Positions 7,570-62,587 of a stretch of 64,000 nt of DNA are shown piece by piece. The stretch is from an uncultured Acidobacteriota bacterium (lineage in GTDB: Bacteria > Acidobacteriota > Vicinamibacteria > Vicinamibacterales > UBA2999): NCBI GenBank assembly GCA_963846425.1, contig CAWJVW010000002.1, positions 265,667-329,666 on the forward strand, in the 5' to 3' direction. Within the stretch, counting starts at the first letter, position 1. Every line of letters begins with the position of its first letter. A program made the translations under genes and the position numbers. The notes beneath the pieces are model-generated. The model made no database searches. It was given only the letters and a program-made list of their open reading frames with translations, and was not told the DNA's origin.

Positions 7570-7706
7570 GAACTAAGAACGAAAAACGAAGAACGCGAAC
7601 CGGGAACGAGGAACAGGGAACGGAACTGCCGCAAACGCGTTGGTTGGTTCGGCGATGTCCGTTCCGTTCATTCGTTCTTCGTTCTTAGTTCTTCGTTCTT
7701 AGTTCG
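7570..7706. repeat. inverted pair of heptamer arrays: (GAACGAN)x8 at 7570-7626 and its reverse complement (NTCGTTC)x7 at 7657-7706
   Basis: I counted period 7 directly: gaactaa gaacgaa aaacgaa gaacgcg aaccggg aacgagg aacaggg aacggaa. The right arm reads ttcattcgttcttcgttcttagttcttcgttcttagttcg. It fills the 151-nt ridA/truA divergent spacer. Confidence 0.9.
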
Positions 7707-19873: not shown

Positions 19874-20854
19874 ATGGACTTCAAGGATTATTACGCCACG
19901 CTTGGCGTCGCGAAGACGGCCTCCGACAAGGAAATCAAGCAGGCGTATCGCAAACTTGCGCGCAAGTATCACCCGGATGTGAATCCGGGAGACAAATCCG
20001 CTGAGGCTCGCTTCAAGGACATCAACGAAGCCAACGAGGTGCTCGGAGATCCCGAGAAGCGCAAGAAATACGACGAGCTCGGCGCGAACTGGCGCATGTA
20101 CGAACAAGCGCAAGCGCAAGGCGGCCGCCCAGGCAGTCCCTTCGGCGGTCAATGGACGTACGCGCCTGGCGGGGGCGGGTTCCGGCCGATGACCGAGGAC
20201 GACATGTCCGAGATGTTTGGCGGGGGCGACAGTCCGTTCTCGGATTTCTTCCGCACGTTTTTTGGCGGTGATGCAGAACCTTCGCGCGGGCGTCGGACAC
20301 GCACGCGCCCCCCACGCAATCGCAAGGGCCGTGACATCGAACACGAAATCGAGCTGGACCTCGCGAACGCTCTTCACGGATCGGTGCAGCGGCTGGGCAT
20401 CCAACATGACGGCGATGTGCGCAATGTCGAAGTGCGTATTCCAGCCGGTGTGATCGACGGTTCTCGCGTCCGGGTCGCTGGCGAAGGCGAACGCGGCACC
20501 GGTGCGCCAAGCGGCGACCTGTACCTGCGGATCAAGCTCCGACCTCATCCCCGCTTCGAGCGCAAAGGCCGGGATCTGTACACCAAAGTTCGCGTGCCAG
20601 TGACGACTGCCGTTCTTGGCGGTGAGGTCGAGGTACAAACCCTCTCCGGCAAATCACTGCGTCTCAAGGTTCCGCCGTTGACACAAAACGGCCAGGTCTT
20701 CCGACTACGCGGTCATGGGCTGCCGACGACCGGGAAGGACGGCACGGCCGGAGATTTGTATGCCACTGTAGACATTGCACTCCCACAGTCGTTGTCGGAT
20801 GAAGAGCGGATGCACTTCGAGGCGCTCGCGACGCTACAAAAGAGCGGGGAGTAA
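19874..20854 (+). CDS. cbpA: J-domain co-chaperone, CbpA/DnaJ class II type (no Zn-finger region)
   Basis: J domain with KYHPD (DYYATLGV...[11 protein letters not shown]), a G/F-rich linker and C-terminal DnaJ_C repeats. The Cys-rich domain is absent. ATG 19874 chosen. Confidence 0.85.
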
Positions 20855-20904
20855 GGCAAAAGGCCAAAGGCACAAGGCACAAGGCACAAGGCAAAAGGCG
20901 AAAG
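20853..20904. repeat. heptamer array (AAGGCAN)x7.5 filling the cbpA-clpB spacer
   Basis: aaggcaa aaggcca aaggcac aaggcac aaggcac aaggcaa aaggcga aag. It starts inside the cbpA stop codon and ends 3 nt before the clpB ATG. Confidence 0.92.
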
Positions 20905-23537: not shown

Positions 23538-25448
23538 GTGGTCCCGCGTGACTGCCTTAACGAGGTTCTGTTGCCTAATCCGCTGTCCCCTTCTGGGCCG
23601 AACAAACGAACCGTGCCGGGACGCCCCACCGCCATCTGGTGGGTCCTCGGCGCTCTGGTCATTCTGGCTGTTGGACAGGCGTACCTGCTTTCCCCGACAG
23701 GCCGACCCGTTTCTTACAGCGAATTCAAAGGACTGGTGCGCTCGGGGCAGGTCGCAGAAGTTGTCGTTGGCGACACGACCATTCGCGGTGAGCTGAAAAA
23801 AGCAGACGGCCCGACTGCGTTTACGACAACCCGGATCGATGATGCCAAACTGGTAGAGGAGCTGGATCAGCACGGCGTGAAATACTCCGGCGAGGTCGTG
23901 AGCCGGTGGCTGCCGGAGGTTCTCAGTTGGCTGGTGCCCGTCCTACTGCTCGTCGCGCTGTGGTCATTTTTCTTCCGTCGCATCGGCGGCGCCGAGGGCG
24001 GCGTCATGTCGTTCGCCCGCAGCAAAGCCAAAATCTATGCGGAAGACGACGTCAAGGTGAGCTTCGCTGATGTCGCCGGGGTCGACGAAGCGGCGCAGGA
24101 GCTGCGCGAGATCGTCGAGTTCCTGAAAACACCCAAGAAGTACACGAGCCTCGGGGGCAGGATTCCCAAAGGCGTCCTGCTCGTCGGGCCTCCCGGAACC
24201 GGCAAGACGCTGCTCGCGCGAGCTGTCGCGGGCGAGGCCAAGGTTCCTTTCTTCAGCCTGAGCGGTTCGGAGTTCGTGGAGATGTTCGTCGGCGTCGGCG
24301 CGGCGCGCGTACGCGATCTATTTGCGCAGGCCGAAGCCAAGGCGCCGTGCATCGTGTTCATCGACGAGTTGGATGCGCTTGGCAAAGTGCGGGTCCAGAG
24401 CCCGATGGGGAGCCACGAAGAACGCGAACAGACGCTGAACCAGTTGCTGGCCGAGATGGACGGTTTCGACGCCCGCAAAGCCATCATCATCATGGGTGCC
24501 ACGAATCGGCCCGAAGTGCTGGACCCTGCGCTGCTCCGTCCGGGGCGCTTCGATCGCCAGGTACTCGTGGACAAGCCCGACATCAAAGGGCGCGAAGCGG
24601 TCCTGCGAATTCATGTCCGCAACGTCAAGCTGTCGCCCGATGTCGATCTGAAAAAAGTGGCCGCTCGCACGGCTGGCTTCGCCGGCGCAGATCTGGCGAA
24701 CCTGGTGAACGAAGCGGCGCTCCTGGCCGCGCGGCGGGACAAGACGCTTGTGGACATGCTCGATTTCGACGAGGCGATCGATCGGCTGATCGCAGGCCTC
24801 GAGAAGAAGCGTGTGATGAGTCAAAAGGAACGCGAGATCATCGCGTATCACGAGTCCGGCCACGCCATCGTGGCCACGACGCTGCCCGGCACCGATCCGG
24901 TCCACAAGATTTCAATCGTCGCGCGCGGCTTCGGGGCGCTCGGCTACACGATGCAGCTTCCGCTCGAAGATCGGTATTTGATGCAGCGGCGGGATCTGAT
25001 GAACCAGCTGACCGTACTGCTGGGGGGCCGCTCGGCCGAGGAGATCGCGCTTGGCGAAATCTCAACAGGGGCACAGAACGACCTGCAGCGGACGACTGAC
25101 ATCGCGCGCGCGATGGTCACCGAGTGGGGCATGAGCGAGCGGCTCGGCGCCGTGAATCATGATGCGGGACGCCGCAATCGCTTCCTCGATGCTTCGCAGG
25201 GGCCAGAACGGGGTGCGTATAGCGAAGAAACGGCCAGGGCGATCGACGAGGAAGTGAAGATGCTCATCAGCGAGGCGCACAACGACGCGCGCCGAATTCT
25301 TCTCGACAAGCGGGACCTGCTCGAAGAGGTGACGCGACGGCTGCTCGAGAAGGAAGTGATGGAGGGCGACGAGCTCCGGGCGATTCTCGCGGCGGACCAC
25401 AAAGGGGCTGAAGAGGGCTTGCAGCCGACCGGCACTACCCCGCAATAA
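23538..25448 (+). CDS. ftsH: ATP-dependent zinc metalloprotease FtsH
   Basis: N-terminal TM helices, Walker A GPPGTGKT, and protease motif HESGHAIV. Confidence 0.95.
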
Positions 25449-26214
25449 CCCACGCCACCACCGCGACCGCAGCGCCGGTCACGCAATCGACCACGTAGTG
25501 GTAGCGGCACACTGCAGCGGCAATCGCAATCAGCACGGCCATTATCAGAAGAACCGCCCCGGCGGTCGCGTTCACCGGCCAGACCGCCAGCGCGGCCGCA
25601 ACTGCACCGGCAACGTGGCCGCTCGGGAGCGTGTTGGCTTGAACACTGGCGCGATCGAGGATCGCGACATTCAGTCGCCGCAGTTGCGGCGCGCGGTCCG
25701 CGATGACGCCCGCGGCTTCGAGTGCGCGAGGCGGTCGCGAGCGAAGCCAGGGCAGCGCCGCGTAACAGGCAAGCTCCGCGGCCAGCACCAGCCCCCAGTA
25801 GTGCGTTACGGGCTCCAGACCCGCGAACCCGGCAATGATGGCGCCTGCGCCGACGACGACGTAATCGGCGGCGTAGCTCGCCTCCAGCACTTCGAGGACC
25901 CACATCGGCGCACGCCGGAGCGCAGGATTGATCCCAAGCGCATCGATCACCCGCGCATCGGAGTCGATCAGAAACCGTTCGAGCCATGGCTGTGGGGTGC
26001 GAAAGAAGAAGCCGGAGAGCCAGTAGCCACAGAGCAGAAGTGCACCTGGCACCAGGAGTTGAATCCAGAACCAGGAAGTCAGCGTGCCGGCGCCGAAGGC
26101 GATGAGCGAGTAGGCCGCGCACGCGGCCGCTGCGACGTGCCGCCTTGGAATCGAAAGGCTGATCGCAGCTCCCGCCAGTACCAGCCCATACACGCCCGCC
26201 ACGATGCCCCACAT
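25435..26214 (-). CDS. PAP2-superfamily membrane phosphatase
   Basis: Polytopic protein with PAP2 motifs LPSGH and RYHYVVD. ATG 26214 or GTG 26220. Confidence 0.65.
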   Translation of the reverse strand: MWGIVAGVYGLVLAGAAISLSIPRRHVAAAACAAYSLIAFGAGTLTSWFWIQLLVPGALLLCGYWLSGFFFRTPQPWLERFLIDSDARVIDALGINPALRRAPMWVLEVLEASYAADYVVVGAGAIIAGFAGLEPVTHYWGLVLAAELACYAALPWLRSRPPRALEAAGVIADRAPQLRRLNVAILDRASVQANTLPSGHVAGAVAAALAVWPVNATAGAVLLIMAVLIAIAAAVCRYHYVVDCVTGAAVAVVAWVIAG

Positions 26215-26242
26215 GGCCACGACAGATAATGTGCAGGAAACG

Positions 26243-26388
26243 GGTTCAGAGGTTCAGAGGTTCAGAGGTGCAGAGGTTCAGAGGTGCAGAGGTTCAGAGG
26301 TGCAGAGGTTCAGAGGTGCAGAGGTTCAGAGGTGCAGAGGTTCAGGGGTTCAGGGGTTCAGGGGTTCCACGGGTTCCACGGGTTCAGA
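26243..26388. repeat. octamer array, 18 units (GGTTCAGA, GGTGCAGA, GGTTCAGG, GGTTCCACG) with an alternating 16-nt super-repeat
   Basis: I counted unit by unit against the translated track ORF. The order is 3x ggttcaga, 4.5x (ggtgcaga ggttcaga), 3x ggttcagg, 2x ggttccacg, 1x ggttcaga. It lies in the PAP2/small-ORF divergent spacer. Confidence 0.95.
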
Positions 26389-26423
26389 CCAGCAGTCAAG
26401 GCTGTGCGTCTTACGTGAAGACC

Positions 26424-26831
26424 ATGAGACGACTCGCGGCTAGCCTTGTCGTCGTGTCAGCGCTCTCGTTCCAGCTATCGGCACAAGAGCGCAATCGCTC
26501 CCTGGAACGGATCGGCCTCGCGCTTCAGCAGCCGCCTCCAGTACCAAGTGGTGCCGACCGTCAAGAGGTACTCCGAGCCTCGACGCTACAGGCGCTCGGC
26601 GTGTCGATCTTCGAGCCGCTACCAGGCGCTGCGAAGCTCGGGCCGTTCACGCTGGGAGCTCCCCAGCTTAGGGGAGAGATAATCCGCCTCTCTCTGCCCG
26701 TCGGTGAGTATGTGTCACGCGTTGCTCGCGGGCTCGCCGCTGCGAATCGACGACGCCAGGAGGCGGCCGCGCGTCGAATGGTCGAAGCAGACCTCAAGGC
26801 GTTTGAGGAACGGCAGCCACCGCAGCAATAG
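26424..26831 (+). CDS. small exported hypothetical protein
   Basis: In-frame ATG 26424 gives MRRLAASLVVVSALSFQLSAQ (signal peptide). The upstream 65 codons of the track ORF are just the translated octamer array. Confidence 0.5.
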   Translation: MRRLAASLVVVSALSFQLSAQERNRSLERIGLALQQPPPVPSGADRQEVLRASTLQALGVSIFEPLPGAAKLGPFTLGAPQLRGEIIRLSLPVGEYVSRVARGLAAANRRRQEAAARRMVEADLKAFEERQPPQQ

Positions 26832-26878
26832 AGCGCCCCCAATCTCCGAAGGGCCACGATTTCTTCGATCGACCTGTT

Positions 26879-27907
26879 TCAGTCGGGCAGCGTGGCCATG
26901 ATCCGTTTCGGATCCAGTCGCCAGACGTTGGCCTGGCGTAAGTTCGACAGCCAGACCGATCCATGTCCGACACGAATCGCGTCGCCGCCCTCACCGTGGA
27001 ACTGCTGGGCCACCTTGTTGGTTGCTGGATCGATGCGTGTGATCGGGTATTCGAAGGACGTCACCCAGACCGAGCCCTCGCCAACTGAGATCTCTCCGCC
27101 CGGCCCCGGGATGCCGGCGGCGATTGTCGCGACAACCTTGTTGGTCTTCGCGTCCACCCGCGAGATCGTGCCGTCCCCCTGGTTGACAGTCCACACCGAC
27201 CCCTCGCCCACTGCGAGGAATCGCGGGCGCGGACCAACCGTAATCGTCTCTTCGATCACGTTGTTATGCGGATTGACGCGCGTGAGGATCCCGTTCTCGG
27301 TCCCGCTGACCCACACGGCGCCTTCACCGAACGCCACAGCAAACGATCCAGGCGCAACGTAGATCTCCGCCACGACTTTGTTGGTTGCCGGATCGATCCG
27401 CGCGAGCGTGCCCTTGGCATCGGTCATCATCCAGATGCTGCCGGCGCCAGTCGCCAGGCCGCCTTCGCTGTTGCCAATGGTGACGGGTAGGGTTTCGACG
27501 ACCTTGCCGGTCTTGAGGTCAACGCGAGACACGCTGGGATCGCCGCAGTTCGGGACCCACAAACTGCCAAAACCGGTGGTGAGTCCCGAGCACGGGTTCT
27601 TGCCGACGCCGATGGTCTCTACGATTTTGTTGGCCTTCGGATCGATGCGCGTCACGCTGTGCTTGGGGGAGTTCGACACCCAGACGTGATCGTCGATGGC
27701 AATCCAATCCGGCACACCGGGAATCTCGAAGACCTGATCAGGCTTGAGCCGGGTCATTGGAATTCGCAGGGCCGCTTCAGCGACACCTGGTCGCTTGGGC
27801 CGTGCCGGTGGCTCCTGATGGGCGAGCAACGGCGTGCAAATCGCGAGAAAAATGAGGAAACTCCGGCTTCGGTCCCTGATGGCTGGTCGCTGGCTCCTGT
27901 TACGCAC
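26879..27907 (-). CDS. exported beta-propeller repeat protein (Vgb/YVTN/NHL-like)
   Basis: About 40-aa repeats of the type GSVWVxNxxxxxVxRIDPxTNKVV. GTG 27907 precedes the hydrophobic FLIFLAICTPLLA segment. The longer track N-terminus runs through a heptamer array. Confidence 0.65.
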   Translation of the reverse strand: MRNRSQRPAIRDRSRSFLIFLAICTPLLAHQEPPARPKRPGVAEAALRIPMTRLKPDQVFEIPGVPDWIAIDDHVWVSNSPKHSVTRIDPKANKIVETIGVGKNPCSGLTTGFGSLWVPNCGDPSVSRVDLKTGKVVETLPVTIGNSEGGLATGAGSIWMMTDAKGTLARIDPATNKVVAEIYVAPGSFAVAFGEGAVWVSGTENGILTRVNPHNNVIEETITVGPRPRFLAVGEGSVWTVNQGDGTISRVDAKTNKVVATIAAGIPGPGGEISVGEGSVWVTSFEYPITRIDPATNKVAQQFHGEGGDAIRVGHGSVWLSNLRQANVWRLDPKRIMATLPD

Positions 27908-27922
27908 GGTGGCATAATACGT

Positions 27923-27958
27923 CGGTCGCCGGTCGGCCGGTCGCCGGTCGCCGGTAAC
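27923..27958. repeat. heptamer array (CGGTCGC)x5, reverse complement of the ACCGGNG family
   Basis: cggtcgc cggtcggc cggtcgc cggtcgc cggtaac, in the divergent spacer upstream of the PSCyt gene. Confidence 0.85.
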
Positions 27959-30900: not shown

Positions 30901-31071
30901 GACGGTCCTACACCGAAACCTGATCCCGCCATGATGGACGGCATGATGGCCGGTGTGCTCGGTCCAGGCGACAAGAAGGCTGGCGAGACCAAAAAGCTAT
31001 TGCCGGTGACCGCCTTCGGCCGATACGTCAAGGTGCTCTTGAGCTCGAACGAGTTCTTGTTCGTGAACTGA
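27976..31071 (+). CDS. PSCyt1/DUF1549(PSCyt2)/DUF1553(PSD1) domain protein, exported
   Basis: Signal peptide, heme-binding CFMCH in the N-terminal PSCyt1-like domain, 1031 aa, followed by a DUF1501 gene (the canonical pair). Confidence 0.85.
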   Translation: MRAAIHARTLLAGAAALLMTTTMWAARETQAPASSPQPIEPPSAKAIEFFEANVRPVFVESCFMCHTKSEAGGLRVDSREALLKGGNSGPAVVPGNPDESYLLQAIRHAPNAPKMPKNGAKLSDAQIGALTQWIRDGAPWPAAAGAAAPAMATSREKVITDEQRAFWSFQPLRKVEAPAVSRADWATSSIDRFILARLEKDGLTPARAADKLTLIRRATLDLTGLPPTPDEIEAFEKDTSPDAFEKVVDRLLASPQYGEAWGRMWLDVARYAEDDPRSLDPMGRGYAPYPNAYLYRDWIVKAFNDDLPYEQFVKAQIAGDLLDEQTRARTLPALGLLGLGPWYYDNGAIEITKADERHDRVDVVSRGFLGLTVACARCHDHKYDPIPTKDYYSLAGVFLNTTYHEYPLAPKSEVDEFKGLEKKIEQKQKLLNEFLEVESRQLGETLALHTAKYLQAAWRVTGEPKDPMGRVADQEKLDYELFDRWVAFLAKPPRFYPYLKDWQEMIKRGGTADEAKKLADAFQTLLLEVMFAKKEIDEENEIIRAKALPGTKKKKPANLPSEFITNDDFCPGCGLELKSLETDQMQLWTDVFRRDLADGFDPAFAFDYIKPGVLNFRGWGLERQLSGDRRAHVEALRNDIKKLQSDLPAKYAYVHGVRDADKPAVMQVNVRGNPTRLGEEVPRRFLSVLSAAAPSPFEKGSGRLELAETIARHPLAARVIVNRVWKGHFGTGIVDTPSNFGFNGERPTHPELLEYLASSFVANGMSIKKLHREIMLSQVYQLSAESIATNAAKDSGNRLYWRASRRRMTAEQLRDSILSVSGALEAKMGGPAETLTPFYNRRTLYGKVSRYRIDPFLQLFDFPAPTISAEQRFATNVPLQRLFLMNSDFMQQQSELIARRVESEPDTRARIRKLYSVIFGRAPNDAELSAGLQYVTQEPLRSYEERKAEAAKKQLEDEKKAPGMKPQASGSPQTSDGPTPKPDPAMMDGMMAGVLGPGDKKAGETKKLLPVTAFGRYVKVLLSSNEFLFVN

Positions 31072-31112
31072 CCGGCAACCGGAGACCGGGGACTGGAGAC
31101 TGGCGACCGATA
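31071..31112. repeat. heptamer array (ACCGGNG)x6 filling the PSCyt-DUF1501 spacer
   Basis: accggca accggag accgggg actggag actggcg accgata. It runs from the last base of the stop codon to the first base of the next ATG. Confidence 0.88.
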
Positions 31113-39678: not shown

Positions 39679-39707
39679 TGAGCTGAGTATATGGCGTGAT
39701 CGACCAG

Positions 39708-39779
39708 CCCACGGCCCACGGTCCACGATTCATCACGCAGATCCTGGCGTTGTATCCGTAGGCCGTAGACCGTGGACCG
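39708..39779. repeat. inverted pair of heptamer arrays: (CCCACGG)x3 at 39708-39728 and (CCGTRGR)x3 at 39756-39779
   Basis: cccacgg cccacgg tccacga ... ccgtagg ccgtaga ccgtgga ccg. The right arm overlaps the GTG 39772 track start of the GT39 gene. Confidence 0.8.
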
Positions 39780-41505
39780 AATCCCGTGCCGGCCAGCGAA
39801 GTTCTGCGGCACGGTACAATCGTCGTCTGTGCGTCGTTCGACCATCCCTGTAGTACTGCTCGCCGCGCTCTCCTTCCTGACCGGGCTCGGCCGTGGTGCT
39901 ATCGCCGACACCGACGAAGCGTTCTATGCGGAGTCGGCCCGTGAAATGGTCGAGTCTGGTGACTGGCTCACGCCTCAGTTCAATTACGAACCGAGGTTCC
40001 AAAAGCCGGCGCTCTACTACTGGCTGACCGCTGCGGTCTACGTCGTGACCGGACCGAGTGAGTTTGGTGCGCGTCTGTGGTCGGGTCTGGCCGGTGTGGG
40101 GCTTGTGATCATCACGGCGGCGGTTGGCCGACGATGGCTTGACGAATCAGCGGGTCTGGTCGCAGGCGCGATTACTGCCACAGGTTTTGGCTACTTCGCG
40201 CTTGCGCGCATGTCGCTGCCCGACCTGCCACTGGCGTTCTGCATCACGCTCGCGATTTGGGCCGCGTTTGTCGCGGCACTCGAACGTGAGCGCCATCCCC
40301 GGCGATGGCTGCTGCTGGCGGCGGCGGCCGCGGCGCTGGGCTTTCTGATGAAAGGCCCGCTCGCAATCGTCATCCCCGCACTGGTCGTCCTGCCGATCCT
40401 GTTGATCGAGCGGCGCTCCTTCAACATCAAACCTGTCGACGTTCTGGTGGCCGCGATTGTGTTTCTCTCGGTGGCGTCACCCTGGTACATCGCCATGTGG
40501 CTGCGGCACGGAAGCGATTATCTCCAGGGCTTCTTCGTCGGCGACAACTTCGAGCGGTTCGCGACGTCACGCTTCAACGATCCGCGCCCCTGGTGGTTCT
40601 ACCTGCCGGTGCTGGCTGGCGGACTGCTGCCATGGACGCCGGTTGCGCTCGTCTGGGTCAGACCCGTGTCGGATTTCCTAAAGCGGCGACGTGATGTGGG
40701 AACTGTCGAACTCAGGTTGCTGCTCTGGACGGTGCTTCCGCTCGTCTTCTTCACGTTGTCGGTTGGCAAACAGCCGCGCTACGTGCTGCCGGTGCTCCCG
40801 CCGATGGCGTTGCTGCTCGCGAGCGCCATCATTGCCCGGACCAGTGAGTGGCATAGCCGGGGCGGCATGCGCGTCAGGCCGCGCCCCAATCTCACCGTGG
40901 TAGCGGGCTGTGTGCTTGCAGGACTGTTCCTAATCGCACTGGCCGTAATGCTGTACCGCGCGAAGCCGCTCTTCTTGAACGTTCCTGAATTAGCCACCCT
41001 CATCGTCGTCATTCTCACTGCAGGGGCGGGCACTGCCGTAGTCGCGGTCAGCTTGACGAGTGCGTGGCGTGCGGCGCCCGCCGTGCTCGCGCTCGGAGCG
41101 GCGGTGACCTTTGCCGCGCTGCCGTACGGCACCTTACCAGCCGCACACGTTTCTGCCGTCTCCGAGATGGCGCGTCTGGTCCGCGATGCGCGAACCGGCG
41201 GCGAGGCGATTGGCACTTACAAAGTCTTTGTTCGCAATCTGGTGTTCTACACCCGCACCAAGCACACCGATCTGATTCACGACGAGCACATCCTGGATTG
41301 GCTGGGCAAGAATCCACGCGCGCTGATCGTGTTGCCGACCTCCGAGGCCGAACGCCTTGAACGCGACCACGGCCTCAAACTGGATCGCGTGGCAGAGCGG
41401 CTGTACTTTGACGACGGCGGAATTCGCCCGCGGATGCTGCTCTGGCCAGATCCGCAGCGCGATCTGCAACGGGTCGCATTGGTAAGAGCCTTACGGGTTC
41501 AGTAG
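39772..41505 (+). CDS. GT39/ArnT-like glycosyltransferase (dolichyl-phosphate-mannose-protein mannosyltransferase family)
   Basis: Polytopic protein with the DTDEAFYAESAREMVESGDWLTPQFNYEPRFQKPALYYWL loop motif. The true start may be GTG 39829, because 39772 lies inside a repeat array. Confidence 0.8.
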   Translation: MDRIPCRPAKFCGTVQSSSVRRSTIPVVLLAALSFLTGLGRGAIADTDEAFYAESAREMVESGDWLTPQFNYEPRFQKPALYYWLTAAVYVVTGPSEFGARLWSGLAGVGLVIITAAVGRRWLDESAGLVAGAITATGFGYFALARMSLPDLPLAFCITLAIWAAFVAALERERHPRRWLLLAAAAAALGFLMKGPLAIVIPALVVLPILLIERRSFNIKPVDVLVAAIVFLSVASPWYIAMWLRHGSDYLQGFFVGDNFERFATSRFNDPRPWWFYLPVLAGGLLPWTPVALVWVRPVSDFLKRRRDVGTVELRLLLWTVLPLVFFTLSVGKQPRYVLPVLPPMALLLASAIIARTSEWHSRGGMRVRPRPNLTVVAGCVLAGLFLIALAVMLYRAKPLFLNVPELATLIVVILTAGAGTAVVAVSLTSAWRAAPAVLALGAAVTFAALPYGTLPAAHVSAVSEMARLVRDARTGGEAIGTYKVFVRNLVFYTRTKHTDLIHDEHILDWLGKNPRALIVLPTSEAERLERDHGLKLDRVAERLYFDDGGIRPRMLLWPDPQRDLQRVALVRALRVQ

Positions 41506-41633
41506 TTCAGAGGTTCAGAGGTTCAGGGGTTCGGTTCGAATGCCAAAGTTCGAGGATCTCTGTCGAGCCTCCTGAACCTTCTGAACCTCCTGAACCTCTG
41601 AACCTCTGAACCCCTGAACCTCTGAACCTCAGG
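41495..41633. repeat. inverted pair of GGTTCAGR octamer arrays (4.5 units at 41495-41535, 7 reverse-complement units at 41568-41628), candidate bidirectional terminator
   Basis: gggttcag tagttcag aggttcag aggttcag gggttcgg ... cctgaacc ttctgaacc tcctgaacc tctgaacc tctgaacc cctgaacc tctgaacc. It spans exactly stop codon to stop codon of two convergent genes. Confidence 0.92.
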
Positions 41634-45383: not shown

Positions 45384-45423
45384 TCGGAGACGGAGTCCGA
45401 CCGGAGACCGGAGACCGGAGACC
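45384..45423. repeat. heptamer array of the ACCGGAG family (3 perfect CCGGAGA units at 45401-45421 plus degenerate units)
   Basis: tcggaga cggagt ccga ccggaga ccggaga ccggaga cc, abutting the recG stop codon (45424-45426). Confidence 0.85.
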
Positions 45424-47526: not shown

Positions 47527-47551
47527 ACAGCGATGTTACTGCACCAAAATA

Positions 47552-47604
47552 GGTTCAGAGGTTCAGCAGTTCAGAGGTTCAGTAGTTCAGGGGTTCCGTC
47601 AGGG
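47552..47604. repeat. octamer array (GGTTCAGN)x6
   Basis: ggttcaga ggttcagc agttcaga ggttcagt agttcagg ggttccgt caggg, 25 nt upstream of the recG start on the opposite strand. Confidence 0.9.
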
Positions 47605-51623: not shown

Positions 51624-52380
51624 TAAGGGAATCGTGAAGTCGCGTCAGGTCGCGCGCCGCGTTTTCGCCGCGCTCGAGCGGCATTATCCAGACGCCGACA
51701 CCGAGCTGAATTACCGCACGCCGTTCGAGTTGCTGGTAGCCACGATCTTGTCGGCCCAGTCCACGGATCAGCGCGTGAATCTCGTGACACCTGATTTGTT
51801 CGCGCGTTACCCCGATGCCGATCGAATGGCGTGTGCCAATCCCGAAGATCTGGAGCCGATCATCATGTCCACCGGCTTCTTTCGTCAGAAGTCGCGCTCC
51901 CTCGTGGGGATGGCAGCGGCTCTCGTCGAGCATCACGCGGGACAGGTGCCCGCGGACATGGACGCGCTCGTCAAGCTGCCTGGAGTTGGACGAAAAACAG
52001 CCAACGTCGTCCTGGGTCATGCGCTCGGTGTTCCCGGCTTTCCGGTCGATCGGCACGTCTTGCGCGTGACCAATCGTCTCGGGCTGGTCCACAGTGAAGA
52101 CCCCGAGAAAGTCGAATCGGCGCTATGCGCGTACTTGTCGCCAGAGCGTTGGACGAAAGCCTCCGACACGCTGATCCTTCACGGACGCCGCATTTGTCGT
52201 CCGACCCCGCTTTGCGAGCGATGTAACGCGCGGAAGGATTGTGACTTCTATCTGCGCGGAGGAATGGTGGTCCGGGCAGGAACTGGAAAGGCACAAGGTA
52301 CAAGGCAGAAGGCAGGCACAAGGCAGAAGGCACAAACCACGAGGCAGAAGGCACCAGGCAAGAGGCCCAGCAAGCGATGA
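51619..52380 (+). CDS. nth: endonuclease III (Nth) with a repeat-encoded basic C-terminal tail
   Basis: HhH motif LPGVGRKTANVVL and [4Fe-4S] motif CRPTPLCERCNARKDC. The last ~35 codons ([33 protein letters not shown]) are the translated AAGGCAN array. Confidence 0.9.
   Translation: MSKGIVKSRQVARRVFAALERHYPDADTELNYRTPFELLVATILSAQSTDQRVNLVTPDLFARYPDADRMACANPEDLEPIIMSTGFFRQKSRSLVGMAAALVEHHAGQVPADMDALVKLPGVGRKTANVVLGHALGVPGFPVDRHVLRVTNRLGLVHSEDPEKVESALCAYLSPERWTKASDTLILHGRRICRPTPLCERCNARKDCDFYLRGGMVVRAGTGKAQGTRQKAGTRQKAQTTRQKAPGKRPSKR
52288..52368. repeat. heptamer array (AAGGCAN)x11, lying inside the 3' end of the nth ORF
   Basis: aaggcac aaggtac aaggcag aaggcag gcac aaggcag aaggcac aaaccac gaggcag aaggcac caggcaa gaggccc. 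Confidence 0.9.
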
Positions 52381-62483: not shown

Positions 62484-62587
62484 GAAGGCAAAGGCAGAAG
62501 ACGAAAGGCAAAATTCAACGCTCGCGACAGGGCCGACGCTTTAGGTTTTGCCTTCTGCCTTCTGCCTTCTGCCTTGTACCCTATGCC
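62484..62587. repeat. inverted pair of AAGGCAN heptamer arrays (62484-62513 and reverse complement 62546-62587)
   Basis: gaaggca aaggcag aagacga aaggcaa aa ... ttttgcc ttctgcc ttctgcc ttctgcc ttgtacc ctatgcc, between the JAMM stop and the next gene's RBS. Confidence 0.9.

Follow-up and report, generated by a model that had tools for sequence, protein, structure and literature searches.

We analyzed a 64,000-nucleotide (nt) stretch of DNA from an uncultured Acidobacteriota bacterium (assembly GCA_963846425.1, contig CAWJVW010000002.1, positions 265,667 to 329,666), referred to here in its full length as the window, and concentrated on a compound tandem array of 18 short units with a GGTTCA core at positions 26243 to 26388. 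The contig is 3.3 Mb long, and the names of the sources of homologs indicate Acidobacteriota and Vicinamibacterales. The array is located between two divergent genes. On the minus strand, positions 25435 to 26220 encode a PAP2-family phosphatase of 261 amino acids (aa) with a GTG start at 26220, which has the length of most of its homologs; on the plus strand, positions 26424 to 26831 encode a secreted protein of 135 aa with the signal peptide MRRLAASLVVVSALSFQLSAQ, a member of a family of 99 homologs (here called the small open reading frame, or small ORF). The spacer between the two genes is 203 bases long, and 146 of these belong to the array, the G-rich strand of which is the plus strand.

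The array was delimited by reading of the sequence, with Tandem Repeats Finder (TRF), and by pattern matching. Its near-identical units of 8 to 9 bases follow each other in the order (GGTTCAGA)3 (GGTGCAGA GGTTCAGA)4 GGTGCAGA (GGTTCAGG)3 (GGTTCCACG)2 GGTTCAGA, which on re-reading of 26243 to 26388 was exactly the order that an earlier note on this DNA had given. The first block, (GGTTCAGA)3 at 26243 to 26266, adjoins the sequence upstream of PAP2. It is overlapped by an exact 16-nt super-repeat, (GGTTCAGA GGTGCAGA)x5 at 26259 to 26338, which is a perfect (GGTTCAGAGGTGCAGA)x5 and the place where short-read assemblies break. The block (GGTTCAGG)3 at 26339 to 26362 is the origin of the GGGG tracts of the array, and it is followed by (GGTTCCACG)2 at 26363 to 26380, which matches a lone TCCACG found before GGTTCAGA in two relatives that have no array (L117 and L121). 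The terminal GGTTCAGA unit, at 26381 to 26388, coincides with the 5' edge of the small-ORF leader (TTCAGACCAGCA...), which is conserved in array-less relatives. All of these blocks read on the plus strand. TRF reported a period of 8 and 15.6 copies for the array with a score of 194, the maximum for the window, and a pattern of two units, allowing two mismatches at most, gave 26 matches in the window versus 0.05 expected from dinucleotide-preserving shuffles. The array is thereby a head-to-tail series of units within the 5- to 11-nt range, with a length far beyond chance.

Two short-read contigs from ERR11571147, which encode identical PAP2 and beta-propeller proteins, ended at approximately 26272 and 26340; they entered the array from either side and stopped within the perfect 16-mer block. 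Arrays of this type break short-read assemblies. Because the short-read contigs reach in from both sides, and because an independent assembly, that of the relative L131, shows a shorter array at this site, we conclude that the array is real and not an assembly artifact.

Next, we looked into the sequences that separate the array from its two genes. The 22 nt upstream of PAP2 (26221 to 26242, minus strand) hold a conserved block, cgTTTCCTGCACATTATctgtc, that ends 5 nt before the GTG; they include TTTCCTGCACATTAT followed by 5 nt. The block TTyCyGCACAyTMT-N5-GTG was common to seven relatives, whether or not they had an array, and its sites were at 26221 to 26242 in the window and at the homologous positions in L115, L116, and L128 to L131, with a spacing to the GTG of exactly 5 nt. 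No Shine-Dalgarno sequence was evident before the PAP2 GTG in the window or in the compared relatives, and a conserved -35 element upstream of the block was absent among the same relatives. This pattern suggests that TTyCyGCACAyTMT is a -10 element and that the PAP2 mRNA is leaderless or nearly so. On the other side of the array, the 35 nt before the small ORF (26389 to 26423, plus strand) include an inverted repeat, GTCTTACGTGAAGAC, right before the ATG and are conserved in relatives. Together with the last array unit, these 35 nt form a 43-nt leader that is retained in array-less relatives, and its conservation exceeds that of the wobble positions of the small ORF itself (L117, L121, L122, L125, and L131 compared). 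A scan of 26100 to 26950 for sigma-70 promoters and intrinsic terminators found none.

According to the earlier note, each of the two flanking promoters had to be inside the array or overlap it. This claim was too strong, since the -10-like block and the 43-nt leader are outside the array and are conserved without it; only a -35 element or positions further upstream can consist of repeat. Resizing of the array leaves the spacing within either conserved block unchanged.

The array also affected gene calling. The source gene call for the small ORF (P0001, 26316 to 26831, 171 aa) starts at a GTG within the array and is an artifact. Since none of the frames of the G-rich strand contains a stop codon within the array, arrays of this kind inflate ORFs and mislead gene callers. 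The 99 homologs of the small ORF start at MRRLAA and nearly all have 102 to 138 aa, and we therefore rejected a translated repeat in the form of a 200-aa ORF running through the array. One homolog, P0011, was likewise called long (237 aa), in its case via upstream sequence that is not repeat. Searches for exact protein matches to PAP2 (read from its GTG start) and to the product of the 135-aa ORF found none, and a metagenome scan with PAP2 as the query returned two distant loci only.

We compared the locus with that of its relatives, as the earlier note had proposed. The closest relative, the short-read contig L131, was approximately 94.4% identical at the nucleotide level to 25130 to 27691 of the window, over 2.4 kb, and had the same gene order (beta-propeller gene, small ORF on the opposite strand, array, and PAP2). 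Its array comprised 8 heterogeneous units in 65 nt, GGTTCAGG GGGTCAGA GGTTCAGG GGTTTAGA GGTTCAGG GGTTCAGA GGTTCCTCG GGGTCAGA, versus 18 units in 146 nt in the window, while the unique flanks of the two arrays differed at 2 of 22 positions on the PAP2 side and at 1 of 35 on the small-ORF side. Because L131 has no GGTGCAGA unit, the 16-mer super-repeat was born after the split between the window and L131. The proposal that the strict alternation of T and G variants reflects recent expansion of a 16-nt dimer thus held, and a perfect 16-mer in five copies next to blocks of variant units is, as judged from the sequence, the signature of recent unit amplification. As a separate observation, the PAP2 gene of L131 (positions 1705 to 2175 of that contig) is apparently broken by a TAA (it is called at 156 aa from an internal start) and may be a pseudogene or an assembly error.

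Long-read contigs with the synteny DnaJ-ClpB-FtsH-PAP2-propeller-PSCyt/PSD-DUF1501 extended this comparison. The small ORF was absent from them, and the spacer between the propeller gene and PAP2 was short, with 1 to 2 units in L128 (PAP2 identity, 87%), 5 in L129 (77%), and none in L130 (75%) or L115 (64%). The units of L128 and L129 were in the PAP2-sense orientation, opposite to that in the window. Unit number thus varies among related genomes (18, 8, 5, 1 to 2, and 0 units), whereas the flanks are conserved. Taken by itself, the array is a large but otherwise ordinary bacterial microsatellite; its value is as a clean, datable example in which one locus has been caught at 0, 1 to 2, 5, 8, and 18 units in relatives at graded distances, with a 16-nt super-unit that was born after a sequence split of about 6%.

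Relatives of the small ORF (79 to 91% identity) were found in other gene neighborhoods and had no array, but they retained the leader with the 5' edge '...TCCACGGTTCAGACCAGCA...', which equals the last units of the window array. Homology among these small-ORF modules begins exactly at the TCCACGGTTCAGACCAGCA unit and stops at the stop codon. The 3' junction of the module in the window (26832 to 26878) joins the propeller stop at acaGGT, directly followed by CGA, and contains one TCGACC unit at approximately 26866 to 26871, so both insertion junctions are in short-repeat units. Among the relatives compared, a small ORF between the propeller gene and PAP2 was present only in the lineage of the window and L131. 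The simplest history of the locus would be insertion followed by expansion: before the window and L131 diverged, their shared ancestor would have acquired the small-ORF module in the spacer that separates the propeller gene from PAP2, and the GGTTCA units at the junction would then have expanded in place, going further in the window lineage. The seeds would have been GGTTCAGA-type units that both the propeller-PAP2 spacer and the border of the small-ORF leader already contained.

Four near-identical contigs with a small-ORF homolog of 91% identity (L117 to L120) carried inverted 9-mer arrays on both sides of that gene, (TAGGTCGAG)4 on the upstream and (TCGACCYAC)n on the downstream side. Of the latter array, three of these contigs had 4.2 copies and L118 had 6.2, and their upstream sequence was identical where shown; this difference is therefore a copy-number polymorphism between samples.

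The earlier note had treated the array as a stand-alone oddity, which it is not. Tandem arrays of 7- to 8-nt units, built from several unrelated units, occur at least 14 times in the window, and although the window is approximately 90% coding (by a rough gene map based on GC3), at least 10 of the 14 are unambiguously intergenic. Many arrays begin at a stop codon or finish at a start codon, and several span the distance from a stop codon to 2 to 4 nt before the next start codon. The same unit recurs at several loci with a bias to noncoding DNA: GGTTCAGA-type arrays are located at 26.2, 41.5 (two arrays), and 47.5 kb. The two at 41.5 kb form an inverted pair between convergent genes, the left arm (41496 to 41532, plus strand) lying over the stop codon of a gene for an ArnT-like glycosyltransferase and the right arm (41572 to 41630, minus strand) directly after the GlcD stop. 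Their predicted hairpin has an energy of -44.7 kcal/mol (z = -9.2) and no T-tract, and the pair may be a bidirectional 3'-end hairpin resembling repetitive extragenic palindromic (REP) elements. The fourth array (47551 to 47596, plus strand) is 25 nt upstream of the RecG start, on the noncoding strand of RecG. In all four GGTTCA arrays of the window, the 5' end of the G-rich strand is beside an ORF, and pairs are convergent. The array at 26243 to 26388 itself showed no such folding; on either strand, its fold was no better than that of shuffles (z of about 0).

The range of units in the window suggests a lineage unusually permissive for arrays of unrelated sequence and similar length. Two of the arrays with other units, AAGGCAA at 20853 and GACCGGA at 31070, are lineage-specific fillings of operon-internal junctions, since they have no counterpart in syntenic relatives: the dnaJ-clpB spacer is about 5 nt in L130 and about 30 nt, with no array, in L129, and the PSD1 and DUF1501 genes overlap in L130 (the L129 region is too fragmented to compare). 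Over the syntenic 20.8 kb, L130 had no array of period 7 to 8 with at least three copies and L129 had one.

We regard the array as probably a slippage-generated, fast-resizing spacer of a known repeat class, tolerated at this site and with little or no sequence-specific function. It would be a hypermutable long simple sequence repeat (LSSR) with a unit of 8 nt and a super-unit of 16 nt, which would gain and lose units by strand slippage or by unequal recombination as DNA is synthesized. The site would tolerate it because both genes have their conserved control sequences just outside it, and resizing would alter only the content at -35 and upstream together with the distance between the divergent starts. 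The effect on expression would most likely be either nil or graded and quantitative. Since several unrelated units of like length occur in the window, a process specific to lineage and unit length fits better than a function tied to one sequence.

Described repeat classes provide close parallels, although the GGTTCA repeat sequence itself was in no paper of the literature searched. Rehm et al. 2015 (PMC4692102) described the G-rich heptamer repeats GGGAATC in Xanthomonas and GGGGA(C/T)T in Nostoc, with an intergenic bias, housekeeping neighbors, and no demonstrable regulatory role; 70 to 75 paired sites per genome occur "with convergent orientation," and repeat length differs among related species while the neighbors are conserved. 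The GGTTCA arrays share with these heptamers the 7- to 8-nt units with one G-rich strand, the many dispersed intergenic sites and rarity in genes, the placement of the 5' end against ORFs, the convergent inverted pairs, the variation in length, and the housekeeping neighbors (DnaJ, ClpB, FtsH, RecG, and GlcD). They differ in that the unit is GGTTCA plus RR, most units lacking the G3 tracts that a G-quadruplex (G4) needs; in that they show no preference for four units; and in that the host belongs to the Acidobacteriota. Moreover, the genes on either side of the present array are divergent, and such positions are underrepresented in Xanthomonas. Because the ORF-abutting and G-first rules hold for a wholly different unit, they point to a general mechanism and not to G-quadruplex biology. 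The array thus extends to the Acidobacteria an unexplained class of dispersed, G-rich, 7- to 8-nt intergenic repeats known from Xanthomonas and cyanobacteria.

For LSSRs with 5- to 11-nt units, polymerase slippage with a preferred unit length has been proposed (Mrazek, Guo and Shah 2007, as summarized in PMC4679880 and PMC4692102). As in that description, the window has tandem units of 7 to 8 nt with heptamers dominating, lengths far beyond chance, and a GC-rich, free-living host; in contrast, the summaries in PMC4679880 and PMC4692102 do not name Acidobacteriota among the LSSR-rich genomes. MacGregor 2015 (PMC4679880) reported TAACTGA intergenic direct repeats in Beggiatoaceae, Cyanobacteria, and Bacteroidetes, which resemble the GGTTCA arrays in having one short unit, intergenic arrays in scattered lineages with no evident transfer mechanism, and frequent placement directly before start codons. 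The TAACTGA arrays mostly have 2 to 6 copies in forward orientation over the ribosome-binding region, whereas those of GGTTCA can point either way and are found behind stop codons as well.

To set the array against other genomes, we used an exact search for (GGTTCAGA)3 with one genome per species; the loci were thus selected for three perfect units. At least 113 stretches were found, in Desulfobacterales, Flavobacterium, Fibrobacter, Acidobacteriota, Verrucomicrobiota, Bacteroidales, Actinomycetota, and others, with GC contents of 34 to 75%. Among the matches listed, the arrays were compound, with blocks of variant units and a mixture of 7-, 8-, and 9-nt units, and mostly intergenic. Metagenome-assembled genomes of Fibrobacter (L061, L020, and L063) contained very long compound microsatellites of several hundred bases, with blocks of GGTTCAGA, GGTTTAGA, GCGTTCA, and GAGGTTAA and inverted copies nearby, a much more extreme form of the array phenomenon.

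Several results weigh against a mere slippage product. The GGTTCA unit occurs at 4 loci in 64 kb and AAGGCA also at 4, a recurrence that is not predicted if the arrays arose de novo, purely by slippage at random seeds. Furthermore, the distinct variant units per array, counted by position 1 to 8 among the matches listed, were 30, 11, 17, 7, 27, 19, 60, and 63, so that in these 113 arrays positions 7 and 8 varied 2 to 9 times more than the core positions 2 to 6. Among the same matches, an ORF within 45 nt was found only 5' of the GGTTCA strand at 24 loci and only 3' of it at 6 (by a rough assignment of ORFs). In addition, all 20 inverted pairs with a distance of up to 300 nt (loci L002 to L114, which come from several phyla, and the window) had the GGTTCA arm first and the TGAACC arm second (binomial P value of about 2 × 10−6, for pairs that are possibly not all independent). 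These patterns suggest a strand- or sequence-specific constraint on top of slippage. Finally, the unit count of the array, which comes from a long-read assembly, may be slightly off. The residual puzzles, namely the reuse of few units at several loci, the conservation of the core, and the strict G-first polarity, are class-wide and can be seen in published work; this locus is not exceptional on their account.

Among the alternatives, we considered whether the array is a contingency or phase-variable promoter element, in which the number of units tunes or switches PAP2, the small secreted protein, or both, in the manner of hmw1A and hmw2A. The location between two divergent genes for envelope or secreted proteins is consistent with such a role, as is the variation in array length among close relatives, and if a PAP2 promoter made use of the conserved -10-like block, its -35 element would fall in the first array units. 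There is also a precedent in Haemophilus influenzae, where arrays of 7- to 9-nt units 70 to 210 bp upstream of the hmw genes modulate expression (PMC2651432, PMC12721329). The hmw1A and hmw2A heptamer arrays resemble the present one in having 13 to 38 short units, approximately 70 to 200 bp upstream of a surface-protein gene, with a copy number that varies among strains. They are, however, transcribed and pair with a G-rich region, forming a long hairpin in the 5' untranslated region (5'-UTR) that is cleaved by RNase III (PMC12721329, PMC2651432), and the mechanism requires this 5'-UTR hairpin of the repeats and a complementary region (PMC12721329). No complementary or inverted partner of the array was present within 25800 to 27100, and in an Rfam scan of the whole window only a tRNA at 1431 to 1504 reached the gathering score, with no match for the array. 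Because the array has neither a complementary partner nor a structure, in which it differs from the hmw arrays, the hmw mechanism does not transfer. Moreover, the conserved core elements are outside the array, and the relatives have no conserved -35. A link to surface or host-interaction genes was not found either, as arrays of the class flank DnaJ/ClpB, RecG, GlcD, and PSD1/DUF1501; they also follow stop codons and occur between convergent genes, unlike contingency genes, and the host is a free-living soil bacterium. We therefore consider a switching or tuning role unlikely.

A second alternative takes the constraint on the core as its starting point. GGTTCA with a spacer of 1 to 2 nt could be the recognition unit for a single-strand-binding factor or for templated synthesis, so that the arrays would be cross-phylum elements with a sequence-specific function and the inverted pairs would act as 3'-UTR hairpins. 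The finding of (GGTTCAGA)3 in at least 113 stretches from many phyla, at GC contents from 34% to 75%, fits this idea, as do the conserved core with its variable spacer, the G-first polarity of 20 of 20 pairs, and the asymmetry toward an ORF on the 5' side among the matches listed. The mixture of 7-, 8-, and 9-nt units within arrays, which also fits a recognition unit with a variable spacer, is incompatible with phased binding to double-stranded DNA. When we searched viral contigs with four control octamers, however, these gave 2, 5, 1, and 0 hits and the target GGTTCAGA gave 0; arrays of arbitrary octamers thus exist, and with control hits of 0 to 5 against 0, an overrepresentation of GGTTCAGA was not demonstrated. 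The loci had been picked by three perfect units, and unit amplification makes the counts nonindependent. The Fibrobacter arrays drift to GCGTTCA, GGTTTAGA, and GAGGTTAA, and no candidate binding factor is known. The same polarity and asymmetry have been reported for the unrelated GGGAATC (PMC4692102) and are thus properties of the class, not of GGTTCA. On this balance, a sequence-specific platform appears decidedly unlikely.

A related proposal is that arrays of 7- to 9-nt units with a GGTTCA core make up a cross-phylum class of elements with fixed polarity and strand- or sequence-specific upkeep, which would also serve as portable homology for the insertion of small gene modules. Fold-back synthesis at a G-rich nascent strand or a conserved binder of single-stranded DNA or RNA could provide such upkeep, and the presence of both small-ORF insertion junctions in repeat units touches on the idea of portable homology. 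We rate this proposal as similarly doubtful.

Last among the functional alternatives is a G-quadruplex regulatory element, with the 3' third of the array folding on the plus strand, as DNA or RNA, and controlling local transcription or replication. The earlier note had pointed to a G4 motif in this part, and as a sequence the motif is present. GGGG-TTCA-GGGG-TTCA-GGGG-TTCCAC-GGG occupies 26345 to 26373, and with a fifth tract at 26380 to 26382, the five G-tracts extend over 26345 to 26382 on the plus strand. At least four tracts of at least three G with loops of 1 to 7 nt, the canonical pattern, occur at both 26345 to 26373 and 26353 to 26382; the motif scan found canonical motifs at only four places in the 64 kb, the array being one of them. 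The G4Hunter score for 25-nt windows peaked at 1.88 over 26337 to 26369. Furthermore, the array of L131 retains four tracts of G4 to G5 length, and in-vitro G4 formation has been described for the related heptamers of Xanthomonas and Nostoc (PMC4692102).

A functional G4, however, was not borne out, and the motif looks incidental. The part that qualifies is 38 of 146 nt, and the G4Hunter score of the entire array is 0.75. The motif requires the GGTTCAGG variant, whereas the dominant units of the family, GGTTCAGA and GGTTCAAA, carry GG tracts only, and GGGG tracts number no more than one or two in the remaining GGTTCA arrays of the window. The G-tracts of L131 are 11 nt apart, beyond the canonical loop limit. 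Moreover, in 106 GGTTCA arrays among the matches listed, the spacers after the core were GA in 67%, AA in 10%, G in 7%, and GG in 7%; GG spacers rose from 1% in genomes below 45% GC to 20% in those above 65% GC, and AA spacers fell from 16% to approximately zero. GG spacers thus track base composition, and the motif is probably a by-product of it that would have arisen where A drifted to G in some of the units, in a genome rich in GC. Rehm et al. found no regulatory role for the G4-forming heptamers (PMC4692102). ViennaRNA with G-quadruplex energies predicted no G4 for the array RNA, but the structure that it gave was implausible and the result was not used. Regulation through a G4 is, in our estimate, very unlikely.

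A minisatellite borne by a transposable element of the miniature, inverted-repeat kind (MITE) or another mobile element was not supported, since an all-against-all BLAST of 191 array flanks found no flanks shared by the window arrays that would indicate a carrier and no shared unique flanks, the flank matches in Fibrobacter being further arrays. A role of the arrays before start codons as Shine-Dalgarno or standby sites was rejected because units occur in both orientations and CGTTCTT is pyrimidine rich. A resemblance of the unit to GGTTCRA, the tRNA T-loop sequence, and to GGGTTCA of the Plasmodium telomere was considered and then dropped as unsupported.

The other arrays of the window are mostly located at gene boundaries. 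AAGGCAA is repeated 7.4 times at 20853 to 20904, where the first unit includes the TAA stop of dnaJ and the array ends 3 nt short of the clpB ATG, and AAGGCAC is repeated 11 times at 52288 to 52374, ending 2 nt before an ATG. AAGGCA(A/C) arrays are also present at 62485 and, as an inverted copy, at 62549; these two and the array at 52288 may lie either in a gene tail or in a spacer. GACCGGA is repeated 5.7 times at 31070 to 31109, where the TGA stop of the PSD1 gene belongs to the first unit and only 2 nt separate the array from the DUF1501 ATG; a member of the GACCGGA family at 45399 to 45423, GGTCTCC x3.6, directly follows the recG stop on the coding strand of recG. A CGTTCTT array at 7665 to 7705 ends 3 nt before an ATG. 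Further gene boundaries are occupied by CGGTCGC at 27923 to 27955 and by GCCCACG at 39707 together with CCGTAGA at 39756 (39707 to 39779). The AAGGCA/TGCCTT pair, which spans 62485 to 62575, also keeps the order with the G-rich arm first. The window, taken from an ENA metagenome assembly, additionally encodes an ADOP-family duplicated permease, which scored above the curated cutoff, and its PadR partner.

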